Shown here: piece by piece, positions 2,420 through 23,028 of the stretch | Layout of the letters: the number at the start of each line of letters is the position of its first letter | Position numbering within the stretch: the stretch's first letter is position 1 | DNA from: Schmidtea polychroa | Taxonomy: Eukaryota | DNA: 64,000 nt | Assembly: GCA_044892525.1 (NCBI GenBank) | Contig: CM097888.1 | Coordinates: 35,588,001-35,652,000, forward strand | Direction: 5' to 3' | Position numbers and translations under genes: made by a program | Notes under the pieces: generated by a model | The model's database searches: none | Seen by the model: only the letters and a program-made list of their open reading frames with translations | What the model was told of the DNA's origin: nothing

Positions 2420-4131
2420 TCAGAAATTACTCTCATTCTTTTTTTTCGGAATCGAAGGTTGGAATTCATTTTCATCAGTCGAAGTTATTTGTGCCGATTC
2501 GATGTTTGAAGCAGAAATATTTACATTCTGAGAGGTGGTAATAAAATCGGTTATTAACAATTGCTTCGAATTTTTTGTAAGATCTTTGTAAACTTCTTCA
2601 TATTGAGCCAAGTAGCGATTTATGTCACGTTGGAATCGTAAAGCCCTTTCTACGTTTGTGTCATTTGCTTTCTTCCCAATGCGAGTCCTTCGCGGATGAC
2701 TTTAGCAGTGAATGTTACTGGTACTAATTCCTCTTCATCAGATTTTTCAGACTCACTTTCGCAAACTAAGTTAACTAAATCATCCTCACTTAGTTCTTTA
2801 TCAGCCATTAACTCTGCGATATCATCATCAGTAAAATCATCAAAACCTTCTCCGCCCAATGAATGCGTCATCTGTACTATCTGCAAATATTCATCATTTA
2901 ACGTTGAAATGGAATGTTCATTTTTGACTACATTTGGCCACAATTTTTTCCAACAGCTATTGAGTGTTGTTTGCTTAATTGCAGTGTATGATAAGGCGAT
3001 ATGCTTCACACAGTCTAATATTGTAAAATTTTTCCAAGCACTAATAACTGTTAAAGATTCATTTTTCTCCATTTGTTCCAAAATATATATAAAGGCTTGT
3101 TTTATGTACAAAGCTTTAAAAGTAGAAATTATGCTTTGGTCCAATGGTTGTAATAATAAAGTTGTATTTTTTGGTAAAATATTTACTTCAACGTTCTCAT
3201 ATTCTAGATCTTGTGGGTGACCCGGCGCATTGTCAATTAACAAAAGCACTTTAAAAGGCAATCCCTTTGAACCTAAATATTTTTTGGCATCTGGGATAAA
3301 ACATTCATGAAACCATTCAGTAAACATTGCAGCAGTAACCCACTCTTTCTTATTAGCCCTCCAATAAACGGGAAGATTTTTGATGTTTACTCCTTTAAAG
3401 GCACGGGGCATTTTTGATTTGTTAATCACTAATGGTTTCATAATATAATCTCCTGAAGCATTGCTACAGAAAAGAATTGTTATGCGATCTTTTGCTGCTT
3501 TATGACCACTAGCCGATTTATAAAATTTTGAGACATAAGTCCTTTCAGGCATTTTTTTCCAGAATAACCCTGACTCATCAGCATTGAAAACCTGATCAGG
3601 GGTGTATGAATTGTCGTTAATAATTTCTCCAAAATTTGCTGGATATTCATGGGCTGCATCTACGTGGCCAGAAGCCAGTTCACCTTTTAATTTTAAGCTG
3701 TGTAAAGAATGTCTTATTTTAAATCTTTCAAACCAGCCATGACTTGCCAAAAAATTTGGCTTCTTTTCAGTCGAAGAAGATGGTAATTGCTCTACAATTT
3801 TTTCGTAAATTCGTACTGCTTTATTTGTTATAGCGGCCGTATCAATGGGTACTCTTTTTTGTGTTTGATCTTCTATCCAAAGCATTAACGCTTTCTCCAT
3901 TTTTTCCATTGCGATATTTCTGGTGTATGATGTTTTGCCCATACTCGTGGTATTGCCAGCTGCAACACTCTTTCTAATTGTGTTTTCATTTGTTCTAATA
4001 GTTCTTATTGTAGCTTCGTTCATGCTATATGATTTTGCAACATCTACTACTCTATCTCCCTTTCGTAAGCGATCCAAAATTTCGATTTTAGTTTCTAAAG
4101 AAATAACTTTTCTTTTAACTTCTTTCGACAT
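2420..4131 (-). pseudogene. Tigger/pogo (TIGD1-like) transposase: CENP-B-type HTH plus DDE_1 domain, C-terminal frameshift
   Basis: 493-aa ORF 4131-2650 with SHGWFERFK, FNADESGLFW, LLIDNAPGH, QPLDQ (DD30D spacing); near 2670 the frame shifts and the natural tail continues as ANDTNVERALRFQR...AQYEEVYKDL to 2420. Confidence 0.9.
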
Positions 4132-4359
4132 TATAAGCCTATAATTTTTTTAATTTATGTTAATTTATAATATGTAATCTAAATTATGCACTCACTTTAA
4201 ACTTTAAAACTTTAATTTTATGCGAAGAAATACAGACACAGTGTGCATGTGCAGCAAGTCAGCACATAAGCTCGGGATTCCCCGTGAGATGTGTACACAG
4301 CGCACGTGTTCAAACACAGTAGCATTTAGTAGAGTGCGATAAAAACAAAAAAAAACTTA

Positions 4360-9465: not shown

Positions 9466-10156
9466 TGCAGACAGGAAGTTTTTTTTACATCAACTGCATG
9501 ACTAAAAAGTCAACTGAATAATGTTGGGCTGAGCCGGAAATTTAAACGTCGAAAATATAAACTTAGGAAATTTTAACTTAGAAGGTAAGACAAATAATAT
9601 ACAAAAAAAAATAAAAACAAAATAAATAATTTAAGAATAAAACGGAACAAGAAATAAGAAAATAAGAATTAGGAAAAATAAGAATTAAAACAAAATAAGA
9701 AAATAGAAATAGGAAAATAGATCAACCAACAAAAAGAAGGAAATTTAATAAATAATGAGGAAGCTAAGGAAATAAATAGAAAAACACAATAAAAACACAA
9801 TAAAAACAAAGAAAATAAGGGAAAATAATCATAAAAACAGAAAAAATAATTAAAATAAGCGGTACTCCAATCTGATTGGTCCGCATACACGCAAAAACAC
9901 TATATATACAGACACAAGACTCATTACATTCACGGTTAATTTCAAATTACTACAGGTAAGATTTAAGCGAAAATTACATTGACGGTTAATTTCAAATTAC
10001 TACAGAGACAATCAAGACTCAAGGATCAACTCAGCGCATTCAACAAGGAATCACAACTCAAGAAAACAACAGTATCGCATACATTGAGATCAACGTTGCA
10101 GAGAGATAACGCATAATTTTTCGACTCAGCTCACAGATTCAAATTTATTAACTGCA
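9466..10156 (+). repeat. LTR-like segment
   Basis: TGCAG...CTGCA ends; A-rich block, ccaatctgattgg, tatatata, internal 32-bp duplication; no TSD found. Confidence 0.3.
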
Positions 10157-10329
10157 GTAAGGCGATTTTATTTTGTTTAGATTATAAAATATTATACGTA
10201 ATTATTTACCTATTTAGTTATTTATTTATTTGTTGCTGTTTAAATAATCATTTGCTGTAATAATCATTCGTAAATAAACGATTTATTGTAGGAGTTCATA
10301 TTTTATATGTATATGATTATTTTATAAAA

Positions 10330-11400
10330 TTTATTGAGACACGTGGCGTTGAGATGGATGGCGTTCATGATAAGAGGTGCCCTCGGAAGCTCTATCGTTG
10401 GACGTACATCGTTTCAATCACGCAGCGAGAATGGGCAGTCAAGTGAAGGTTTCTTCACGGGTTCAATCGCTGAGGGCGACCAAAAATCTTATTTGAGTAA
10501 CGGGAGTTGGATCGAAAGAGTAATTTCAGACTTATTGTAAATTAGCTATGCGATACACAGTGATTGAGGTGGACACTTTATCTGTTTTGGCACGGTTAAA
10601 AGACGTTGGGTAGCTCTGGAAAAAGTTGTGAGCATTAAAAATCGAGATCTTCAACGTAACCACTGACTGTATTCTTGGTTCGAGACCGAATTTATGCGAG
10701 AGTTAACCACTAGTCACCCGGAAAATACCTACTTCAATCGATAGCATTATTACTTTCGATTAAAAACATTATCACAGTAGATAGGAAGAAAATTTTCATT
10801 ATCAAATTAAGACATCATAATACATTTGAGTTAAAATCACGATTGTAAATTTAGTTTTCTATCACATGAATAGTTCCATCGTTGATTTGGTTTTTCATAG
10901 TCATCTTTCATTTCATCCCTGAGACTTACTCGCGTCTGGTACATCCATCGGCAGAAAGGGAAAAATATTTCAGACACTAGGAACAGTCAGGCAAAAATCC
11001 AGTTTCAGAGAGTGATGTGCGAATTAACACACTGTAATAGCGTCGCGAATTTTTCAACGTAAAAACGTGCAGATAGGCAATATCCAATTCACGCTGATAA
11101 GATCTATGAGATGGTCGATGAGAAACTTCCAGATTGGCAGAATAAATCCAATAATTTGTTAGCTCTACGTACATGCATTGATAAGAGACTAGTTAACTAC
11201 CACCCGCATAGATAAGAACTCATGAGAGAGATAGACTGTGAACACAAGGAGTTTCAATTCACACGGCATTATGTCCGATAAGTAGTGAGCAGCAGTGACT
11301 ATGGGTATCAGATAACAACTCACATGCGGTAGGGCCAAGTGGGTCATTCACAAGTATCGATTATCGAGATGAGACCGTAAGGAAATAAGCCACCTGCTCT
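10330..11400 (+). mobile_element. Degraded Gypsy-like pol (integrase/chromodomain-like) remnant
   Basis: GC-richer island; broken frames include KLPDWQNKSNNLLALRTC..YHP (integrase C-half-like) and EWAVK*RFLHGFNR*GRPKILF (chromodomain-like). Confidence 0.35.
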
Positions 11401-11937
11401 GCAATTATTCAGCTAAATAGGAGACCTCATTTTAAAGTGCAAGCATTAAGCTTAATTTTCTTAAATTACACATTGGAATAAAAACTTACTGTAAACTTTT
11501 ATATCTGTTTAATCACTGACCTGATATCACTATATCCAAATGTTGCATGTTTCCGGTATAATTAGACTGCAAGTTAAAACATTTTTTCCTTTTCGTAACA
11601 AGTAACATAAAATGTTGTTAGTGTTAACTCTAAAACTGAACACCGCGATCGTAAACAATATTAAGAAAATATTAATTCTAAAATCCTCCAAAGTTTTTAT
11701 AAAAATCGAAACAAATATTTTGTTCATTTTATTTTTGATGCTACTAGTCCGGACAAATCTTAGGTATTAAACTATTTAAATGGTCATATTATTTATTTAC
11801 GGTAATAAATGGTGTTAGAGTTAAATCATAAAATTTAGTTAATAGATTTTCCGGTGTTTACGAATGCCTTTACAGTATGATAGACTCCTGATGATCATGT
11901 TAAAGACATATTTAGGTGATGATTGTGAAATACTGAC

Positions 11938-11952
11938 GGGGGGGGGGGGGGG
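11938..11952 (+). promoter_or_regulatory. G15 tract, candidate polypurine tract before an LTR-like TGATGG start (11955)
   Basis: 15 consecutive G, then aa, then TGATGG; near-complementary CCAGCA end at 13656-13661. Confidence 0.4.
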
Positions 11953-12380
11953 AATGATGGAAAATTTTGAGATGGACTTGAACCCATAAGGGCAACAAGA
12001 GCATAGGCCTTTTGCGAAGTGTATTTCGTTCAAAATCTTAGCTCAAGTAGGGAGTAAAATAGAATAATTAATAAACAAAACTAAATCAATTAAGGGGAAT
12101 AACAAATTAAGATAAAGTGAAGATGTAGAGATAGTGTTCTAAACAGCCATAGGATAACCTTTGATAAATTATCTTAGTGCACGAAAGGGGGAAAATCAAG
12201 GAGTAGATTTAGGTAAGTGACAGATAAACCTCTGATAATCAACTATACAGGGAGAGAATTGATCTCATTAACTCATCTTGTCCTTCCTCTTGCCAGGTAC
12301 CTCACTGTAATTGGACCCTTGTAGCTAACTGACTATTGCATGTATCATTCCCTTAATTTTCTTCATTACAGCCATTCGAC

Positions 12381-13130
12381 ATGTTATCTCAGAATAAATC
12401 GGTGCTACGATCCTGCTTCTCCTGCGCAGATAAAAACGCAGTGATAAAAGATCTTCAAGCCCGGATCGGTCGATACAAGCGGAAGATCGACGAGCTGGAA
12501 GGCACATGGTTCAGCCCAGTGCAAATGAAGGAGATGCAGAAAAAACTTCATCGTAGTGAACATTGCCGGGATGCTCTAATCTCCGAGAGCCGCTCCCAAC
12601 GAAGCTTGATCAAAGAGCAATCCGAGGCACTACACAAGGTGTATGTGCAGGCGACAACGACGAGGAAAATCGTGCAAATCTCCATCCATGAAGCAGATAA
12701 TCTGTTCCCGGTGCACCACGACACCTCAGCGAAAACGTCGTCTCCATTCAAGAGGCCCTGTCGTGAGTGTGTGGAAACTGAACTCTCACCAAGTCGTCAG
12801 GATGTTATCGTCGTAGGGACTAGTAAAGTGCAGCCCAATGTTCCATCTACATCAACTCAGCCGCAAGAGAAGCGGCCAATCGTGAAACCCAAGTGCCGGC
12901 AACCCACGACGACCGAGCGTAAGAGGAGGCAGCGTGAACGAGCCTCAGTAGTATCTAACAACCCTCCAACGGGAGATCCGATCAATACTACCAACTCCCA
13001 CCCATCAATTGACTTAACTACCGGAGTCCCAGCGCGGATCATCGCAGCCACGGGAGTGACGTGGGAAGAAAATGCCGGTGAATTTTTTGACCTGGACGAG
13101 CTACTAAAAGATACCGAATGGGAGAAGTGA
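12381..13130 (+). CDS. Cassette A ORF, 249 aa: coiled coil, EGTWFSP motif, basic NLS-like cluster, acidic aromatic tail; unknown function
   Basis: Intact GC-rich ORF; ATG 10 nt after acceptor ttcttcattacag (12371); upstream donor ttag|gtaagt (12213); aataaa at 13259; shares EGTWFSP with ORF 17868-18326. Confidence 0.7.
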   Translation: MLSQNKSVLRSCFSCADKNAVIKDLQARIGRYKRKIDELEGTWFSPVQMKEMQKKLHRSEHCRDALISESRSQRSLIKEQSEALHKVYVQATTTRKIVQISIHEADNLFPVHHDTSAKTSSPFKRPCRECVETELSPSRQDVIVVGTSKVQPNVPSTSTQPQEKRPIVKPKCRQPTTTERKRRQRERASVVSNNPPTGDPINTTNSHPSIDLTTGVPARIIAATGVTWEENAGEFFDLDELLKDTEWEK

Positions 13131-13394
13131 ACAGCTGTAACGAACTACTCTTTTTTCGATCATTACCTGACATGTTTCGTCCACTTATCTTCTCATCGAT
13201 TCTCTCTCTGACAATAGTGATTCGGTTAAATTTGTATAGCTCAATGTTATAGAATTGTAATAAAATTTTAGTTTTAGTGATTGGGTTTTTATGATAACTA
13301 ACTAATAACTGTGTAAAGACGAGAGTGTATTGGTTTATTGCGTCGGGATATATGTGCATTCGTCGTACCACCAAGGAGATTGATAGTGTGCGTT

Positions 13395-13661
13395 GACATA
13401 AGTCCTTCTACCGGCAGTCGTGTGGGGAGAAGTCGAGGCCTCAGTAAGGAGTAGTTCTAAGGTAGGAATTCACCTGCTTACTGACGTCTCGCCAGCGTGG
13501 TACAGTTCCAACGTGGAGCAATCCACGGGTGCCACGTTGTAGGGTAAATTATGTGGGGCCCTCCTCAAAGTTGACAAGGGAATAGCGATTTCATGAAATG
13601 GACAATCATCCCTTAGAGCTAAGCGTAAACCAAGGAAGGTCAACTGAGTGGTGCCCCAGCA
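13395..13661 (+). ncRNA. Candidate structured RNA element, copy A
   Basis: gac..ccttctaccggca..gtc hairpin; cagtaag/cttactg stem; cgtggtac/gtgccacg stem enclosing cgtgga-GCAA-tccacg; terminal ggggc/gcccc, agttgac/gtcaact and aaggga/tccctt stems; homologous to 16934-17207 and 17469-17674. Confidence 0.6.
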
Positions 13662-14289
13662 ATAATATCATTTTTAAATTGATAATTTAGAGATCGAAAA
13701 ATAAAGAAACATAATGGTTAATGCAACCATATTCATTCTATACCTAAACTTGATTGTTAGGCATTTTCTTTTTTTATAATTATCGTTTCACCTTGAGTTG
13801 CAATAAAAACGAAAAATTTACTTGCCATCTATAACTGAAAACCGTGCGAATTCTAATACAGGACATTCATAAATCTTAATCGACCGCCTGTTAATGAATA
13901 CACTGATGATATAAATCAGGTTGGAAATCACCTTTACAATGAGTTCCACCCACGAGCTATGGAAAATTGATTTCTCCTTATTAGTCGCGTCGTTACAAGA
14001 CCTGTCTAGAATCTTGGAAATGACATCAGCTCCTAAATTCGTTACCCATAACACTCTAGATTTGATTAACCAAAATATATTGTCTGTGATTCGAAAATAT
14101 AATGACACAATAATGTTTTTTTTTCAACAAGCCCTTAATATTCATTTTCGGCTTGGAATTAAATCTATTTATCTAAGAATGTAACATTTTAAATTTTATA
14201 TTAATATTATTTTTACGGCTTTTTTCAACAAATTTTATACTACAGTAACATTTTACAAAAACATATTTATGTTATTATTCCGGAGTATA

Positions 14290-14930
14290 TTCACCATCTA
14301 TTTTAATTACTGCTTACAATTTGTTTGGCAGTCGGAAGAATCCATGAGGGTATACTTTTCTTAGATGCAATCCACTCTGATGGCGTCAACTAAGTCATAT
14401 AAGTTTTAGTAAACTTTGTTAGCGAGCCAATTTTTTAGTAATCGATTGACGTCTTAGTCTGTAGGAGTATATGGCGGATGAGGAAGCAGTTCTCAGCTTA
14501 TATTGGTGACAGATTCGTCGACAAGAAACTCAATATGTTTACGAGCATTCTCGTAGTGGAAGATGATGTTGTTCTTATCGACTTGAATGTAGCGTCAATG
14601 TGGTCAAATTGAGTCAGGTAGACGTCGATATATATATATAAAATCGCCGTTTTTCCTTATTCCACCAGTATCGCACTCTTTCGTCATCCTAATACCTATC
14701 CCTCTTTTCTCTTCAAAACTTCAAAATAACTATGGTTTATCATTAAGCAACTTCGGTACTGTATTTTAGTAAGTGTTTGAAGACAAAAAGTGAGTCTAAT
14801 TTTAAGGACTGCAAATGTTCTGACACACCTTTGGTACCCAGGCTTACCATAAAAGGTGCAGCGGTCTATTAGTCCGTTCTAATACCATTGTTACCTTAAT
14901 TGTGTTTTTCACCATCACTTTGATGGAGTC
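14290..14930 (-). mobile_element. Degraded mariner transposase fragment
   Basis: Minus frame IIFHYENARKH..*ELLPHPPYTP..LLKNWLANK matches mariner FHHDNARPH/WELLPHPPYSP; many stops. Confidence 0.65.
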
Positions 14931-15391
14931 TTTGTACTCCCTAACAAATTCGAAATAGTCAAACAATCGAGTAATGGGATTTCATTTGTTAACGAAACTC
15001 AAAACTATAGTGGCCGATGATGTTTACCTTTTTGTTGGTTAACATAACGAAATTTAGATTTAAGGTGCGATAAATTAATAAAAAGCCAAATCACAAAATA
15101 GTAAAATTTAATCTGAAGTTTAATAGTTTTTGTTGAAATTATTAGGCTCTTCATTTTGTATTTTAGTCTTTTTATGTAGAAAATTGGAATTTAAATTTGA
15201 TTTTAATATTAAATGAATTTTCACAAAGTGTTGACATTATATCAAAACTATTTAACTAAATCTTTGACATTAAAGCTACGAGCCGATTTTCTTCGATTGA
15301 ACCTTTATTTAACATTCAAGATGAAGATATAATTTAACTAAATTCTTATTTGAATATGTTTCTCTTAAAAAAATACTGGCTTTCACATTGT

Positions 15392-16065
15392 TGTTGGGCC
15401 AGAATTGAGAGTTGTTTTAATGAATCGGAAATACATAACATATGAAATCGCACCAAGTTGAATTAAAATCCATGATCATATACTAAATAACACAAACTAA
15501 GATACACAAAACATAGAGGATGAATAAAACACGTATAATAGAATAAAGGAACGCAAGAAGTTGCAATCTCCAACCCAATTAGGAGAAATATCGCATTCGA
15601 AAAATCTAAAAACTAGAAAATAAAATAATAATAAATAAAATAATCAATAATAAATTAATTAATAATACGAAATGTTTTAAATAAATAAATTTAAAATTGA
15701 CACTAAAATATAAAGTAAACTGATAAAATGATATAAAAATAAAATAAAAGTAGTAAACATATGTAAATTATAAAATTGACAAAACTAAATTGTTTAATGA
15801 AAACTAAAATAAAACCAACAAAAAATTATTTAAATAATAAAATTTATAGAACCAAATTGTTTAAATCAATGAAACTAAAATAAAATTAACTAAACTTATT
15901 TAACTTATAAAATTTATAAAACTAAATTCTTAAATTAATAAAAACTAAAATAAAACTAAAATTATTTAAATTATAAAATTTATGAAACTAAATCGTAGAA
16001 ATTAATAAAAATTAAAAAATTTTGATTAATTAAACTAATTAAATTAAAAATAAATAATTACATAC
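15392..16065 (+). repeat. LTR-family copy (TGTTGGG start) with AT-rich repeats
   Basis: First ~270 bp align with 55924-56190 (ttttaatgaatcg.aaatacata..cgcaccaagttgaat..ggaacgcaagaagttgcaatc); right end not defined. Confidence 0.6.
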
Positions 16066-16933
16066 ATTCAGGCATGCATGCAAAAGTAATTCAAAATTTC
16101 TCGCATTCTAATTGGATATAGTAGATGAGAATGCATGAATACACAGTCAAAATCAGTATAAATACTTATTGGAAATTCAGTCAGAACTAACAAGTTTAAT
16201 CTGAATTTTTTCATTATTTACCAGACATTCAGGCAGCTCTCAGTTTTCAGTTTTATGACATTTTGGTAAGTTTGATTTGATTTTTGTAATTTAATGTAAT
16301 GTCTAACTCTATGTAACATATATTTGTTGTAAGTTAATAAAATGTTATAGTAAATTTAGTCTGGTTAATTTTCTTGCTTGTTATCCTAATGTTGTGTTTT
16401 GGTTCTTTCTAATATTTATTTCGTAGTAAATTTCTAGTAATTCTTTGCTTGCATGAACATTATTTAATTTGGTATTTATGAACATTTTTATTTTTGGATG
16501 CTGATAGTCGCAGACAATTGACAAGTTTGGAACATCCAGTTCATTGATTTTTATTTTGATGCCCTCCAGCTTGGGATATGGCTGTGAGCTATTGACCGAA
16601 ATGCTGATAGTCACAGACTGTTGACCAATTTGGACCATCGATTTATAGGATAGATATGGGAAATATAGAGTAATTTTGGATGGTTTGAAGCTTTGTTTAA
16701 ATATAGGTAGTAGAGAACGGGTTCGTTTTAGAAGTACATAGGTCATAATTAGGAAATACAGGTAGATCCCTACCCAAATTTTATGAGGAGTATAAAACCA
16801 CATTTATTAACTCGGAAATAAGGGCCGATCTCTGCTCAAATTTTTGAAGAGAATTATAGAAAACAATTAGTAACGAGGACCACAGTTAAATGAATACATG
16901 ACAACACTAACAATAGAATGGATAATGAATAAT

Positions 16934-17207
16934 GACGTAAGACCTTCTATCGGCAGTCTAGAAACCGTAAGGAAAGTACATTGAGGAGTAGTTTTAGCAA
17001 TAAAGCTCACCTGCTCATTGATTTTCAACCATTGTGTACAATACCAGCATGGTCGTCGCAATGGATACACAGTAATGTATATAATGGGAACACCACCTCA
17101 CCCCACCCATCTAAGGTCCCTACACCTCTAAAGTCCCTCTCATTTAATGGTATACCACTTTTCAAATTTTTAAATTAATAATTTTTAACACTGAAGTAGG
17201 GTGGGGT
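16934..17207 (+). ncRNA. Candidate structured RNA element, copy 3
   Basis: gac..ccttctatcggca..gtc; cattgag/ctcattg; ttgtgtac/atacacag enclosing catggt-cgtc-gcaatg; terminal accccaccc/gggtggggt stem. Confidence 0.55.
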
Positions 17208-17341
17208 CTAGAATTCAAACACCCAATTTCAAATCTAAAAATTTATTTAATCTAAGCATTGAAGGTCTAGTGGACTCTAAAATAAGTGGGTATAAGCCGG
17301 TGTTGCCATTATATACACTACTGTACACAGATGGTCTAAAG

Positions 17342-17410
17342 CAGGGGTTTCAAACTCAAACTGGCCTGCGGGCTGCATTAGACTAGTATTATGAGCCGGC
17401 GGGCCGCAAC
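17342..17410. mobile_element. One end of a hAT (Buster/Charlie-like) MITE
   Basis: caggggtttcaaac terminus plus cgggccgc subterminal motifs, as in the 29597-30180 element; other end not found. Confidence 0.55.
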
Positions 17411-17468
17411 ATAAATAATTGTTTTTCAGAACATGTGGAGTCTGAAACTCCGACATTAATATTTATTT

Positions 17469-17674
17469 TGGTGGGTTACAGGTGGTTGAATGATTAAGTG
17501 CTGTTACCAGCGTAACCCAACATGCAACATTGTCTTTCCGCTTGGTACCCGTTGAGTAATCAACGTTGGTACTGTACCAAGGGTTGAGTACTCGCAAAAA
17601 GTGAGCGCATCAAGGCACTATAATTGTCGAGTGCTCCATGGGTTCACGGACTACCGATAGAAGGTGTGTGTCCG
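17469..17674 (-). ncRNA. Candidate structured RNA element, copy B
   Basis: Minus strand: ggac..ccttctatcggta..gtcc; gcact/agtgc; cttggtac/gtaccaag enclosing cgttga-ttac-tcaacg; terminal tgggttac/gtaaccca stem. Confidence 0.6.
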
Positions 17675-17867
17675 ATTTTTTAGGTCCCTTATCAAAATTG
17701 TTTTCCCAACCTTATGCACAAAACCCTCATTTCTCAGGCAATCATAAAACATATCGGATATTATTTTAGTACTACGAAATATGTATTATTTTAACAATAA
17801 AAATATTCTTTTAAGACTACAAAGTATACACAACACACTACAAGGATATATAAACCAGAATAAAAGT

Positions 17868-18326
17868 TCAACTCGGCTTGTTGGTAGAGCTGGCCAATCC
17901 CGTCGTAGACGCTTGCGATGAATTTGCTTGCCGCTCGTACTCGGCCAGCCTGGCCTTCTTCAATTTTTCCCGAATGTTTCGCCCAAGCCGTTTTCTTTTG
18001 GGCTTATTTTCGGCGGCTGGGGGATATATCGCCGCGAGTTCAACGGTCAGTGGCCGAATTTGTCTTGCCACGGCCTCCTGCACCACCTGCTCATTTCGCT
18101 CGGTCTCGAGTGCCCGCACCTGCAATTTCAGGGCGCGGATCTCCATTTGGTCCTGAGCGGCCTGTGTTTGTAGCTGGAGGATCTGGGCAGTTTTCTTCTT
18201 CATCGCTTCGGGACTAAACCAGGTCCCTTCGAACTCCCGGCATTTTCCTTTCAATTTGTCCACTCGGACTCGGAGTTCGTCAGCACGTTTCTGAGCCTGC
18301 TCTCGATCTTTACGCAGGTTCTCCAT
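17868..18326 (-). CDS. Cassette B ORF2, ~152 aa (MENLRKDREQ...): coiled coil, EGTWFSP motif, KPKRKR NLS-like cluster; unknown function
   Basis: Intact GC-rich ORF; ATG 11 nt after acceptor ctaat..ccttttag (18338); ORF-track start 18353 lies in the putative intron. Confidence 0.7.
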   Translation of the reverse strand: MENLRKDREQAQKRADELRVRVDKLKGKCREFEGTWFSPEAMKKKTAQILQLQTQAAQDQMEIRALKLQVRALETERNEQVVQEAVARQIRPLTVELAAIYPPAAENKPKRKRLGRNIREKLKKARLAEYERQANSSQASTTGLASSTNKPS

Positions 18327-18648
18327 TAGCTTGTACACTAAAAGGAGTCTCATTAGTTTTGTTTATACCAAAAAAAATTTATAGAATAAATTATTGGTAA
18401 GATTAAATAATATTGTTATTCGCGCTTATCGCTAGGCCATTTTTATAACCCCTCCATCTACCAACTGACTCATGCAACCAACAAAAAGGAAGAATACTTT
18501 ACGTAAGAACAACCACTCTACGGTTTCTAATACTCAACTATGATACTAATAAATTAGACTAAATCAAAATACTTTATTTAAACACAAACACTTGACGATA
18601 TCTAATACTAAGGGAATAGACTAGGTTATGTTAATTGTCCTCCAATAA

Positions 18649-19014
18649 TCACGACTGATGTTTGCGGGGCCTCCCTCTCTTTCGGGGAGTTGCTTCGGCT
18701 TCTTCGAGTTCCTCCAGGGACACTCCTTCTCGCTTGGCCCGGATTTGGGCCTCTATTTTCTTTAGTCGAATCTGTGCGGCTTCCACGTCCCAGGCCGCTT
18801 GATCTCGAGCCTCCTGCAACCAATTATTCTCCGGCTCCACCTTCACCCATGCCGGGGCATCCACTTCGGGGCCCGTCCGGATTACTCGAGCTGCGCAATC
18901 CAGGTCCCTTCCCTGACCCCACCGATGTATATGGTGCCAGATGTACCGGGTCCGGAGACGGGTGATCGTCTGCTGGTCAGTACCCTCGTCACTGCTAGAG
19001 CTAGATTGCGACAT
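18649..19014 (-). CDS. Cassette B ORF1, 121 aa, C-terminal AT-hook (TPRKRGRPRK); unknown function
   Basis: Intact GC-rich ORF; ATG 2 nt after acceptor tatttatattacag (19017); upstream donor gagag|gtaagc (19536). Confidence 0.7.
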   Translation of the reverse strand: MSQSSSSSDEGTDQQTITRLRTRYIWHHIHRWGQGRDLDCAARVIRTGPEVDAPAWVKVEPENNWLQEARDQAAWDVEAAQIRLKKIEAQIRAKREGVSLEELEEAEATPRKRGRPRKHQS

Positions 19015-19906
19015 GTCTGTAATATAAATATTAAGACCGTGTGCAGCCCGTGTGACTTATAAATTTAAAGTACGATAAAATATACCACATTTTACACAAA
19101 TAGTGCATTAATCACCAAAGTTATTAATATGTATATATATTCAACAATTAATCACCAAGGTTATCCCAATCAATGCCTATACATTTAATAATTAACCATC
19201 AAAGCTATCATAATTAATATATATACATTTAACGGGAAATTTTCGATTTAATTTATTGGGTATCCTGTTAACTAACTAATGGAAAGAAAAATTTTATCAT
19301 CCTTTTAATTAATCAAATGAAAGAAAAAAAATTTTTTTCAATGTTGAGTTTTAATACTAGAAAGTTTATGCCCCGAGCGATAATTCTCCAAAAATCACTT
19401 TGTTTTAAATCATTATTTTATTCACCAAAAGTTATTTACCACTAGTTGGTAATTTAAAAATTATCGAATTACTACTGAATTCGGGCACGCCGGGGTGATG
19501 GGTATTAGCGACAAGCTTAGTTTCTCGTTTGCTTACCTCTCCCTTGGTTGTGTTCATCATGAATGGTACAGTCGACTTTTATGCATTTGAGGTAATTCAT
19601 TTATTTACCGTAAATTTTGATTTCCAGGAATGTTGGATGATAACTTTTCCTGGTTGGAGATGGATGAGCCTAGTTTTGGGAGATCATCCTACGATTCATA
19701 ATTTTTGATTCTTAGTGGCTTGGTAATATGATTTGTTGTTCATAATAAAAGAACAATCTTATGTTTTTATTAATAGTAATTTAATCTTCTAATAAACGAA
19801 GTTATATATTTGCCATTCATTCAGGATTTAAAGGGGGTAGTTTATATGTTGGATCAGGTACTCTCACCCATATCCTCAGCTAACCTAGATGGTGTTAACA
19901 TTTTCT

Positions 19907-19923
19907 AGGGGGAGGGGTGTTGC
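19907..19923 (+). promoter_or_regulatory. Candidate polypurine tract and LTR start
   Basis: agggggagggg directly followed by TGTTGC, the usual PPT-TG junction of LTR retrotransposons; matching CA end not identified. Confidence 0.5.
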
Positions 19924-20079
19924 TAAAAATAACTTTCTAGTATTTCAGTCATTCCTATTAGTTCAAAAAGGTTGATTCCAAATTTAACTCCGGGGGGAAA
20001 TCCTAAATCAATATTTGATTTAGATTTTTATTTTTGTGAACTACAACTTATGAATAGGGACAATGATAGTATTAGCGAT

Positions 20080-20131
20080 GATAATAACGACAATAATAAT
20101 AATAATAGTAATAATGATAATAATAATAATA

Positions 20132-20164
<33 letters not shown>

Positions 20165-20413
20165 GCAATATTAATAGTAATATTNNNNNNNNNNNNNNNN
20201 NNNNNNNNNNNNNNNNNNNNNNNNNNNNNNNNNNNNNNNNNNNNNNNNNNNNNNNNNNNNNNNNNNNNNNNNNNNNNNNNNNNNNNNNNNNNNNNNNNNN
20301 NNNNNNNNNNNNNNNNNNNNNNNNNNNNNNNNNNNNNNNNNNNNNNNNNNNNNNNNNNNNNNNNNNNNNNNNNNNNNNNNNNNNNNNNNNTATCAATCAT
20401 AATATTGATAGTG

Positions 20414-20444
<31 letters not shown>

Positions 20445-21190
20445 GAATAATAATAAGAATAAAGATGATACTGATACTAATAATAATAATGGTGACGATT
20501 TAGAATGATAACTGGAAATATAATCACTTTCAATTCATACTTTATAATTTTAACAAAATTAATTTACATTTCCAATTTTAACGTCGAATGCTTCGATGTA
20601 AGCTATGGTAGCTACTTGTACTTTATATCTTCATGGTCAAATTTTGGTTATAGCTAATTATAATTCATTTCTACATTTATACTTTGTAGTTATACCTAGG
20701 TACAAATTATATTTTATAATACGACTTTACCTCAAATTATTCGTATTCCCTGCTCTTATAGTTAGAACTTATAATTATTTATAATTTATATTCCTAAATA
20801 TTTTATATATAACTAATTATAATTTATAACTTTATATTTTATAATTTATAATTTTGCTTTACCATTTATAATTTTATATTTTGTAGTTTATAAATTTATA
20901 TTTTATAATTGCCAATTTTACATTTTATGATTTATAGTTTTTAATTTTTTCAATTTATAAGTTTATATTCTATAATTTCTAATTTTATCTTTTATAGTTT
21001 TATGTTTTTCAATTTATGAATTTGTACTTTGAAATTTTACGTTTTCTATTTACAATTTCGTAGTTTGTAATCTATAAATTTATATTTTATAATCCGTAAT
21101 TTTATGCTTTATAAATAGTAATTCTAGGTTCTACAATTTATCATTTTATTACTTCACCACTCGTCATTTCATAATTCAGGGTTTATAATT
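20080..21190. repeat. (AAT)n microsatellite around an assembly gap (20185-20390), followed by degenerate ttataatttt-type repeats
   Basis: Direct reading; source of the poly-N/I/L ORFs. Confidence 0.9.
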
Positions 21191-22039
21191 TTATAGTCGA
21201 CTCGTATACTTCTTTATGAGTACCCTTTTTGATCAACATTGTCTTCTAAAATTATTTGCAGATTTCTTGGTACTATTAGGGTATAATTTCAGAATATTGA
21301 CGAGTCTACAGTCTATACATAACTAGTTCTAAGTTAATTGATCCTTATGCTACAATTTATTTACTACTATCCCCATCTAAAACTTATTATCAAGACTTCT
21401 CCATTATCAATTTATATTTTCAGGGTCGATATAATTTATATCTAAAATCTCATAATTATCTATAACTTGCATTTTGATTATAATTAGTAAATTTTATAAT
21501 AAGTACTTATATCTTTATAAATATTTAAGATGGGCGCTTGAATTAATAGATCTGTAATTTAATCGGTTAGATTTGTAATATCTATAGGTAGATTGAATTT
21601 ATTCGCATAGTAATAAATCTCGAAGTCCCAACTAGATGAGGTTATACCCACACATATGCCGGACACTTTATCATTTCTATTACTTCAGTTACTACAAATT
21701 TCTATTACCAAAATCGGATTCGGCATATGTCTGAGTACAACTGGAATGGCTATTATTGCTCAACCGACTTCATTAAGGTGATTGCAGAATTGTGTAAGGT
21801 TAGGTATGAGTTCTACTCAGATTAAGACCTTATTGTAGAGATATTTGACATTGATTTTTAATGTTGATTTTAAATTTGTATTACGTACAAAGTCGGGAAG
21901 AATATTGCTTCCATGGCCCCACTGTGACCACTTCCACAAACCTTAGTGTTGAGTGTTGAGTCAACCATTTACGGTCGACCTTACATAAACACAAAGAGTC
22001 AGACGGAGGTTTTCCTCGACCTAACTCCATGGCAGGACC

Positions 22040-23028
22040 ATGAAGTAGTTCGACCTCCGAAGGACCCGAACAAAAAAAAGTCGTATAGTATCGATCAATA
22101 TAGTACGAATAATGCATCTTGGTAGATTGCATAAAAAATTTTATTCGATATTCACGAATGCAGGACGGAATAGCGACGCACAGTGACGCCGCTGATCATT
22201 CATATTTATCTAAATAACAACGAATTTAGTAAGAATAATTTAATTATAGAAATGTGTTCATTAAAATAATTACATACATGGTTAACATAAAAACAATGCA
22301 ATCAAAAAAAAATACCCACTATCAGTTTCCTTCAAAATTTGGTCAACAAAAAATTATATATACTATTATATATACCTATTTTGTACACGTGTATGTATTG
22401 ATACAGTAAAACAAACTCGAATTCTTTTTATTCCAGAATTTTCTATTTAGCGATTTTGCTATTTTTAATGGCAATTTTTGTGCCATAATTTTTGTTTTTA
22501 TTTTTATATTTTTATTTTTTAATTATTTTTCGTTAATTTGCCGTCCATGATGGATTTGGAACGGTTCCAGAACATTCTATTTTATTTTTAATACAATTTT
22601 CATTTTAACTGATGTTTTATGAATTTCTTTTTGTAGATTTTTTATTTTTAATACTAATTTATTTATTTTATCTAATTTTTATTATTCTAGTTGGCTTTTG
22701 TGATGGTCATCGCCATTTTTGTGGAATGTTCTGGGTTTTTCTGGAATATTTTACTGTTTCTACTCTCTTTTAAGTTATTCGAGTCTGTTTTTGTTTATCT
22801 GTGTTTATTTGGTTATTTTCGAGTTCTATTTTGCATAACCTCTTGCTTTTGGTATAATTTTATTTAATTTCTGTGTTTTAGGTTTATGTTGTTTTTCCTT
22901 TAATTACTATTGTTTATTTGATGTAATTTTAATATTTAACTATACTTTGTGCTTTTTTACTTGCTGTGTACCTACACATTTCGGTCATAATTAGAAGTTT
23001 GGGTCTAGAAATCATTTCTAGCCCAACA
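22040..23028 (-). repeat. LTR-like segment (TGTTGGGCTAG start on minus strand)
   Basis: Same start motif as the LTR at 55924; A-rich body; possible CA|TGGTCC junction near 22040; left boundary uncertain. Confidence 0.4.

Follow-up and report, generated by a model that had tools for sequence, protein, structure and literature searches.

Small coiled-coil protein genes predicted to be spliced within the long terminal repeats of giant Burro-type Gypsy elements of Schmidtea polychroa

Two small open reading frames (ORFs), A and B, located in a 64,000-nucleotide stretch of Schmidtea polychroa DNA (assembly GCA_044892525.1, contig CM097888.1, positions 35,588,001 to 35,652,000 of the forward strand; hereafter the window) were analysed following an earlier note that had singled them out by a shared EGTWFSP motif. 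The favoured interpretation, to which a probability of roughly 45% is assigned, is that both are accessory genes lying within the long terminal repeats (LTRs) of giant Burro-type Gypsy elements and spliced to a leader in the same LTR, their products being predicted to form parallel coiled-coil dimers and likely to serve as nuclear activators of the element's own transcription. The positions given in the earlier note held for both ORFs, their shared motif and AG acceptors, the basic clusters headed by KPK, and the acidic aromatic tail of ORF A, and the GC contrast judged there by eye was confirmed by calculation (ORF A 0.51, ORF B 0.55, window 0.295). Overlooked at that time were a third reading frame (ORF C, 19014-18649 on the minus strand), both LTRs, and the fact that the carrier belongs to a known type of giant LTR retrotransposon. 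The LTRs and their coding features are as follows.

9522-13661 (+): solo LTR A, 4,140 bp, with TG...CA ends and a perfect 4-bp target duplication, ATAA, at 9518-9521 and 13662-13665.
12381-13130 (+): ORF A, 249 amino acids (aa), with CxxC, helix 13-41, the EGTWFSP turn (12498-12518), helix 46-96, a disordered linker, a basic helix and an acidic aromatic tail.
17469-23028 (-): solo LTR B, which belongs to a second Burro-type family and measures 5,560 bp, with a perfect 4-bp target duplication, AAAT.
17868-18337 (-): ORF B coding exon, beginning TG, with the motif at 18230-18210 and with neither CxxC nor acidic tail.
18649-19014 (-): ORF C, the second gene of LTR B, 121 aa, with its own acceptor (19018-19017), its own stop and a downstream AATAAA.

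Both window LTRs lacked a flanking primer-binding site (PBS) or polypurine tract (PPT) and are thus solo LTRs. An interpretation of ORFs A and B as a single inverted pair was ruled out, the two being separate insertions. LTR A was homologous to the 4,160-bp LTR pair of a full element of 30.4 kb (E1), and LTR B to the LTR pair of another (E3, with 5,570-bp LTRs). Among the matches listed, same-strand pairs were recorded 26 kb (A) or 29-37 kb (B) apart in the genome; four of these were LTR pairs with 99.2-100% identity, each LTR containing the ORF in its 3' third and in element sense, and three further pairs behaved in the same way. Between the LTRs was located one 4,732-aa frame with Retrotrans_gag, zf-CCHC, Monjiviricetes_fusion (E 1.7e-70), RVP, RVT_1, RT_RNaseH, rve and Ank domains, accompanied by a MATH_2 (TRAF/MATH) domain in a separate ORF (E 5.7e-27), a RING ORF placed after the primer site of full elements, and a BIR match that was weak only (E 0.0025). 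The carrier, some 30-38 kb in size with LTRs of 4-5.6 kb, thereby resembles Burro and GYPSM1, the giant Gypsy-like LTR retrotransposons of planarians, in size, long LTRs, a single huge gag-env-pol-ankyrin frame, and MATH/TRAF, RING and BIR-like cargo, as far as the available text of their description extends (PMC6431247). By way of contrast, that same text names no ORF, intron or gene within the LTRs (PMC6431247). The carrier is therefore a Burro-type giant Gypsy element, assigned as such by description and not by identity to Burro-1 to -4 or GYPSM1.

The internal regions of eight full elements contained no homologue of A, B or C save for one nested solo LTR. All eight, from both the A and B families, shared the same PBS directly 3' of the 5' LTR, which may be tRNA-Pro-like. 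Comparison of E1 with E7, and of E3 with E8, indicated internal regions that were 98.5% and 93% alike, and LTR middles that were unalignable or 67% alike: LTR cassettes have been swapped between element backbones. In the full elements at L062 and L072, three or four more orphan ORFs, 220-530 aa in length, were located in the 3' internal region between pol and the 3' LTR; one begins like a signal peptide, and none had a Pfam match above cut-off.

Candidate expression signals of the two LTRs occupy the following positions.

9873-9909 (+): CCAAT box (TGATTGG) and TATA-like box, the inferred LTR A promoter.
9956-10005 (+): predicted leader intron 1, 50 nt, its 3' part duplicating exon 1.
10006-10156 (+): predicted non-coding leader exon 2, devoid of ATG.
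10157-12371 (+): predicted intron 2, GT...AG, the counterpart of which is cleanly missing in a natural LTR (L264).
13259-13264 (+): AATAAA, candidate poly(A) signal, 128 nt past the ORF A stop.
22319-22378 (-): in LTR B, TATA (22378-22367) and a leader ending in A at 22320 before the donor.

Of 18 A-type LTRs, 16 had the CCAAT and TATA boxes, placed at +319 to +511, and a donor followed the TATA by 52-58 nt in 11 of 16. Among 27 A copies, 26 carried a poly(A)-type hexamer 93-155 nt past the stop, and 12 had an exact AATAAA anywhere in the untranslated region. Leader intron 1 was missing from some natural copies, such as L131 and L264. At 9923-10005 it is flanked by a tandem duplicate of exon 1, a family-specific sequence seen in most A-type LTRs, as though an intron had been gained or lost several times through duplication at AG|GT.

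In B-type LTRs the TATA was situated at about +650 and the donor some 80 nt later; in the window copy this promoter-leader region is disturbed, the TATA-to-donor stretch being shortened and the donor differing from that of its relatives. Of 20 distinct B leaders, 18 had A as their final base; as the exon of ORF B opens with TG past its acceptor, splicing is predicted to make the start codon, A|TG. The start proposed previously, Met at 18326, had to be abandoned: that ATG was absent from 14 of 39 distinct B acceptor contexts, all 14 of which would require the A|TG start, and the coding exon begins at 18337. Comparison of the copies thus established a predicted family B start codon that is split and completed by the leader's last A on splicing. 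ORF C was considered as the first exon of ORF B and rejected, having its own stop and AATAAA in all intact copies. Contigs from one sequencing run guessed to be RNA covered ORFs A, B and C, and did not cover four bins of the LTR A intron; no splice joint was found among the 15 joints listed for that run, and no weight is placed on this result.

Five narrow searches of the genome for predicted junctions, two of which yielded intron-less joints, provided natural copies bearing directly on this splicing. Of 11 matches to the family B junction, nine were not junctions, and the remaining two proved to be both LTRs of element E8 (1,561 bp, 99.94% identical), wherein the leader is joined to ORF B at the predicted bases; unspliced relatives carry introns of 1.0 and 4.5 kb at the exact positions of the E8 joints. 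A search for the A junction gave three matches, two of them not junctions and the third a 1,874-bp LTR (L264) with both introns gone, the join at the predicted place and the ORF open. This join is located 42 nt from an anchor, the corresponding donor lying at 39-44 nt in four unspliced relatives; no partner LTR was found for L264 within 35 kb upstream. Two of the other searches returned no matches, and one returned 13, all of them intronic chance matches. Predicted leader-to-ORF joints are thereby shown to be fixed in natural intron-less copies of both A and B. These copies are evidently fossil complementary DNAs (cDNAs), and splicing would therefore have taken place in RNA that was later reverse transcribed. 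Precedent exists in the spliced endogenous Mtv copies of mouse mammary tumour virus (MMTV), described as fixed in DNA in the accessible part of PMC11998498.

If transcription were to begin at the TATA found 350-700 nt into the LTR and to stop at the poly(A)-type signal past the ORF, then the order promoter, donor, acceptor, ORF and poly(A) signal would imply a repeated (R) region of about 3.3 kb in A and about 4.4 kb in B, and any LTR, including a solo one, would constitute a whole transcription unit. This architecture is considered probable. The rival arrangement, which bears on architecture independently of function and is considered rather unlikely, would place the ORF in a long unique 3' (U3) region as in MMTV sag, the genomic RNA starting past the ORF at an unrecognised promoter and the upstream TATA acting as a second, internal one. 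Several observations favour that rival and count against the long-R arrangement: intron loss in LTRs, including both LTRs of E8, fits a U3-located ORF equally well; TATA-like words are scattered past the stop in 25 of 54 copies (A, 18 of 27; B, 7 of 27); and AATAAA occurs past the 3' block in 11 of 27 B copies, a second, downstream promoter consequently being conceivable. Moreover, intron-less joints came from only two of the five junction searches, and an R of 3-4 kb would require unusually long strong-stop DNA. On the other side, no CCAAT and TATA boxes are conserved in position except those preceding the ORF, and no poly(A)-type signal except the one 93-155 nt past the stop, an interval with little room for a start site. 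A more sweeping proposal, regarded as doubtful, is that each Burro LTR forms a spliced gene complete in itself, its R measuring 3-4.5 kb, and that any solo LTR left in the genome can still make a dimeric nuclear regulator; thousands of 'dead' remnants would then form a dispersed gene family setting element activity in trans, and the element's introns would be controlled by its own LTR-encoded protein.

The extent of the family became apparent from searches of the whole genome. A degenerate motif pattern, which also admits Thr, Cys or Arg at the Ser codon, gave 2,545 exact matches compared with none for the reversed control; the matches listed differed at third positions, and Ser was coded by both TCN and AGY. 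Protein searches with ORF A and ORF B each returned at least 150 scored matches among about 6,500 candidates. For 62 motif matches at 60 further loci, a strict LTR-end pattern, which left 37 of the 62 without assignment, found 22 with LTR ends plus target duplication and three flanked by a PBS or PPT. For 21 of these 22 LTRs with a target duplication, the motif was 1,137-1,202 nt from the LTR 3' end in A, or 715-755 nt in B. Three clades were distinguished: A1, which includes window ORF A; A2, about 32% identical to it; and B. Thousands of copies therefore exist in at least three clades, and the two copies described earlier are two of these. Four identical ORF B copies were also noted as a tandem array with 15.8-kb spacing (G000:C1:39424582-39472440).

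Homology between A and B extends further than had been supposed. BLASTP gave 52% identity over 27 aa (E 3e-7), and profile-profile comparison of the two families gave a probability of 96.8% (E 2.4e-10) over 82 ungapped columns, an alignment which takes the homology well past the motif. The EGTWFSP likeness is accordingly real and not due to chance.

Selection was assessed both between and within families. Goldman-Yang (GY) estimates of omega, confined to full-length family representatives (12, 12 and 8 sequences), were 0.130, 0.117 and 0.104, and 0.037, 0.017 and 0.052 for the core; control shifted frames gave 1.3-2.4. Estimates by the method of Nei and Gojobori (NG86) were restricted to unsaturated pairs (17 of 66, 19 of 66 and 14 of 28). 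Within young subfamilies, changes present in at least two copies gave ratios of nonsynonymous to synonymous polymorphism (pN/pS) of 0.21 (A), 0.34 (B) and 0.21 (C), and private changes gave 0.73, 0.48 and 0.85, the copies being top protein matches, which biases these values downwards; four duplicated loci were removed for B, and four more without ORF C were removed for C. Private stops were near the neutral expectation (5 versus 6.5, 3 versus 5.0 and 2 versus 3.7), and a single contig sampled in order gave 72 motif-bearing copies, 37 of them full length and 35 broken. Window ORF A carried eight nonsynonymous and three synonymous private changes.

These data demonstrate purifying selection between families and decay after insertion. 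Given strong constraint between families and near-neutral private changes, the gene is concluded to serve the element during replication and not the host. The proposal that a selected protein family is borne by a mobile element and reached via splice acceptors was thus upheld, with the qualification that selection operates only while the element replicates. Intactness, which had been read as a sign of selection, does not carry that meaning for the window copies themselves: the family is selected, and both copies appear to be young remnants whose open frames would reflect recent insertion. That a host-selected, domesticated gene family merely rides on the LTRs is very improbable indeed. A private pN/pS below 1 in family B (0.48), and public gene models in which relatives look fused to host genes, would suit a host gene; purifying selection on single inserted copies, as looked for in a domesticated gene, was nevertheless not found, and the near-neutral private stops, the 35 broken copies of 72, the ratio of eight to three in window ORF A, and the downward bias of pN/pS in top protein matches all argue against it. 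The fusions themselves, with 14 unrelated partners and 10 of 10 looked-up entries being singletons, are as found with prediction chimeras.

The AlphaFold monomer and dimer modelling suggested in the earlier note was carried out. For ORF A, a model built on 26 sequences with AlphaFold2 predicted helices at 13-41 and 46-96 split by the motif, with short helices at the basic stretch and tail and the remainder disordered (mean pLDDT 62, pTM 0.23). Modelling of two copies of residues 8-114 gave a parallel coiled coil whose chains are in register, W43 and F44 lying in the interface (score 0.50 versus 0.01 for the best control; 87% of contacts in agreement between runs; pLDDT at least 83). By calibration, the mark used to call a dimer was reached by 21 of 30 solved microbial pairs and none of 23 single chains, and by 17 of 29 eukaryotic pairs and none of 30 singles. 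A homodimer formed via residues 14-94, with the motif W-F in the interface, is therefore predicted.

All 33 proteins analysed (26 A and 7 B) had a basic stretch of at least 9 K/R per 20 residues, and 20 of the 26 A proteins had a tail net charge of -4 or below. A-type proteins retain a CxxC, an HC and a His pair, possible zinc ligands judging from the residues alone. ORF C has an acidic N-terminus and a C-terminal AT-hook-like motif (AT_hook E 0.015, short of the Pfam cut-off). As previously noted, no domain family could be recognised: for 26 A proteins Pfam gave only weak coiled-coil matches of the Rootletin/MAD type, attributable to noise. Foldseek against the PDB gave nothing at E 0.001; VIA, covering 48,161 chains, gave none at Z 8 (best Z 6.1, generic helices); ESM Atlas gave a best value of 0.90, unnamed, for A 1-115, and no usable match for ORF C; and word-seeded protein searches gave none at E 0.001 among 355 and 45 candidates. 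Comparison by eye with the bZIP pattern gave no match.

A HMMER search of 1.84 billion representatives recovered 16 relatives (E 2e-15 to 2e-5) sharing GTWxxP and the second helix, most with an Arg-rich motif that reaches 11-12 Arg per 20 in distant ones; acidic aromatic stretches were seen by eye past the domain in four distant relatives (P0002, P0003, P0009 and P0015). An unrelated Pfam domain was present in 14 of the 16, and all 10 entries looked up were singletons; such fused relatives are likely to be gene-prediction chimeras. One database relative was at most 51% identical to this genome, among the best 150 of 3,896 candidates, and the family is therefore likely to be present in another species also.

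A further conserved feature was recognised near the 3' end of both LTRs.

13389-13545 (+): conserved covarying RNA structure, inferred U5, with a donor-like GTAAG at its head in most families.
17543-17709 (-): B-type version of the 3' LTR block, inverted repeat I4.

Located past the poly(A)-type signal, the structure consists of two hairpins with invariant CTCACC and CCAAC words. In 20 diverged copies 93% of cells were paired and 22 of 28 pairs had changed on both sides, values favoured by derivation of the structure from the same sequences; none of 500 shuffles scored as high, and slid controls gave 34-46%. It occurred in every LTR type examined, including those without an ORF, and is a candidate packaging or poly(A)-control element. 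Rfam gave no match to it, the only match, to tmRNA (E 0.43), falling beyond both LTRs. At about 15393-17100 (+) is another Burro-like LTR, the third and a short one, with some 40 scored relatives and with the same promoter type and 3' RNA block; copies of this type that could be measured contained no ORF longer than 62 aa.

How these proteins might act is a matter of motif-based inference, the 'nuclear regulator' label included. As presently envisaged, the spliced LTR transcript would be an early product, the basic helix would provide nuclear entry and nucleic-acid binding, the acidic aromatic tail would recruit co-activators, and the protein would feed back on LTR promoters as retroviral transactivators do; family B has no such tail, and there part of the activator role would fall to the AT-hook ORF C. 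This mechanism, including the part given to ORF C, is put forward tentatively. Tas, Tat and Tax are likewise small spliced early products with basic and acidic regions acting on the LTR, a layout similar to that proposed here, with no sequence or fold match to ORFs A and B. Several findings weigh against the activator: no DNA-binding domain was recognisable in the family proteins; the acidic tail was absent from 7 of 7 B proteins; the dimer mark was reached by only one of seven eukaryotic pairs without a solved relative, and the model may have passed by resemblance to solved coiled coils; and ORF-less short LTRs exist with the same promoter type and 3' block, the gene consequently being possibly dispensable or supplied in trans.

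The closest rival to the activator retains the same anatomy in a Rev-, Rem- or CERV-like factor, the basic helix binding element RNA, the coiled coil multimerising, and unspliced genomic RNA being exported or packaged. Despite the several introns and poly(A)-type signals that the RNA would contain, copies without introns are scarce (five narrow searches recovered one element plus one LTR, against 2,545 motif matches); the coiled coil and basic motif are the sole features common to A, B and the distant relatives; each LTR type examined has the covarying RNA structure; and there is precedent in a Gypsy element, namely CERV of Cer1 (available text of PMC10309623). It is nonetheless thought unlikely, in that an export-signal pattern fell within the last 40 residues of a single A protein among 26 and of no B protein among 7 (the same simple pattern occurring elsewhere in 20 of 33), activation is a better fit for the conserved acidic aromatic tail, and the RNA structure, being present in ORF-less LTRs too, may be a packaging or poly(A)-control signal.

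Ranked third, and decidedly improbable, is a protein that counters host silencing (PIWI/H3K9me3) or shifts host cell fate, like the apoptosis and ubiquitin modules of Burro. Burro is under PIWI control in planarians according to the accessible part of PMC8532177, the element bears TRAF, RING and BIR-like cargo, and there are many diverged clades with LTR cassettes whose histories are unlike those of the internal regions (93-98% alike, as against LTR middles that are unalignable or 67%). Set against this are a core omega of 0.02-0.05, with no sign of rapid change, and no chromatin- or ubiquitin-domain match.

Among known systems, and within the portions of each source that were available, MMTV sag provides a parallel to the genes described here, in that an accessory ORF lengthens the LTR, an acceptor lies just upstream and spliced forms are fixed as DNA (PMC3026287, PMC11998498). 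Its mRNAs are initiated in env or the 5' LTR and draw on the copy in the 3' LTR (PMC3026287), whereas here the full order from promoter to poly(A)-type signal is contained in one LTR; protein and element class also differ. CERV of Caenorhabditis elegans Cer1 is similarly a regulatory protein of a Gypsy element, made from spliced mRNA and predicted to multimerise, and is set apart by its description: large, with a G-like domain and a Cys loop, and with no mention of an LTR location (PMC10309623). In springer-subclade insect endogenous retroviruses, splicing completes the methionine codon of env as AU|G (bioRxiv 10.1101/2023.08.03.551782), compared with the A|UG predicted here for a small gene in an LTR. 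Plant LTR retrotransposons have additional ORFs that are comparable as conserved orphan ORFs of unknown function kept across copies, and that differ in occupying the internal region, mostly from pol to the 3' LTR, often in antisense (PMC7264820). The available text of PMC11410931 mentions Burro as a repeat only, and that of PMC13524379 makes no mention of it. The carrier type and, from MMTV, the principle of an ORF in an LTR are thus already known; no description was found of this protein family or of a gene within Burro LTRs in the literature consulted, the first publication on Burro with its extended data, the corresponding Repbase entry and a figure of PMC6431247 being outside that scope and possibly showing such ORFs.

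LTRs are usually taken as non-coding, and solo LTRs as promoters at most, whereas those described here, in one of the most abundant planarian elements, contain a constrained protein gene with predicted leader, introns and poly(A)-type signal. Were the long-R architecture true, it would stretch the tolerance of reverse transcription and make solo LTRs protein-coding. The ORF family offers a single small target, open to RNAi or antibodies, for asking how Burro switches on when PIWI control fails, and the 14 of 16 database relatives with an unrelated Pfam domain counsel caution in annotation, LTR exons having been fused into host gene models.

Elsewhere in the window, a Tc5/pogo-type transposase frame (2650-4149, minus strand; DDE_1, E 2.7e-42) runs without a stop for 499 aa, and the description of neighbouring transposases as riddled with stops is consequently not of general application. 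Two convergent DEAD-box helicase paralogues, p68-like by eye, are located at 49192-50490 (+) and 54955-53837 (-), and a 12-bp tandem repeat of about 2 kb with extreme strand skew occupies 59400-61400.

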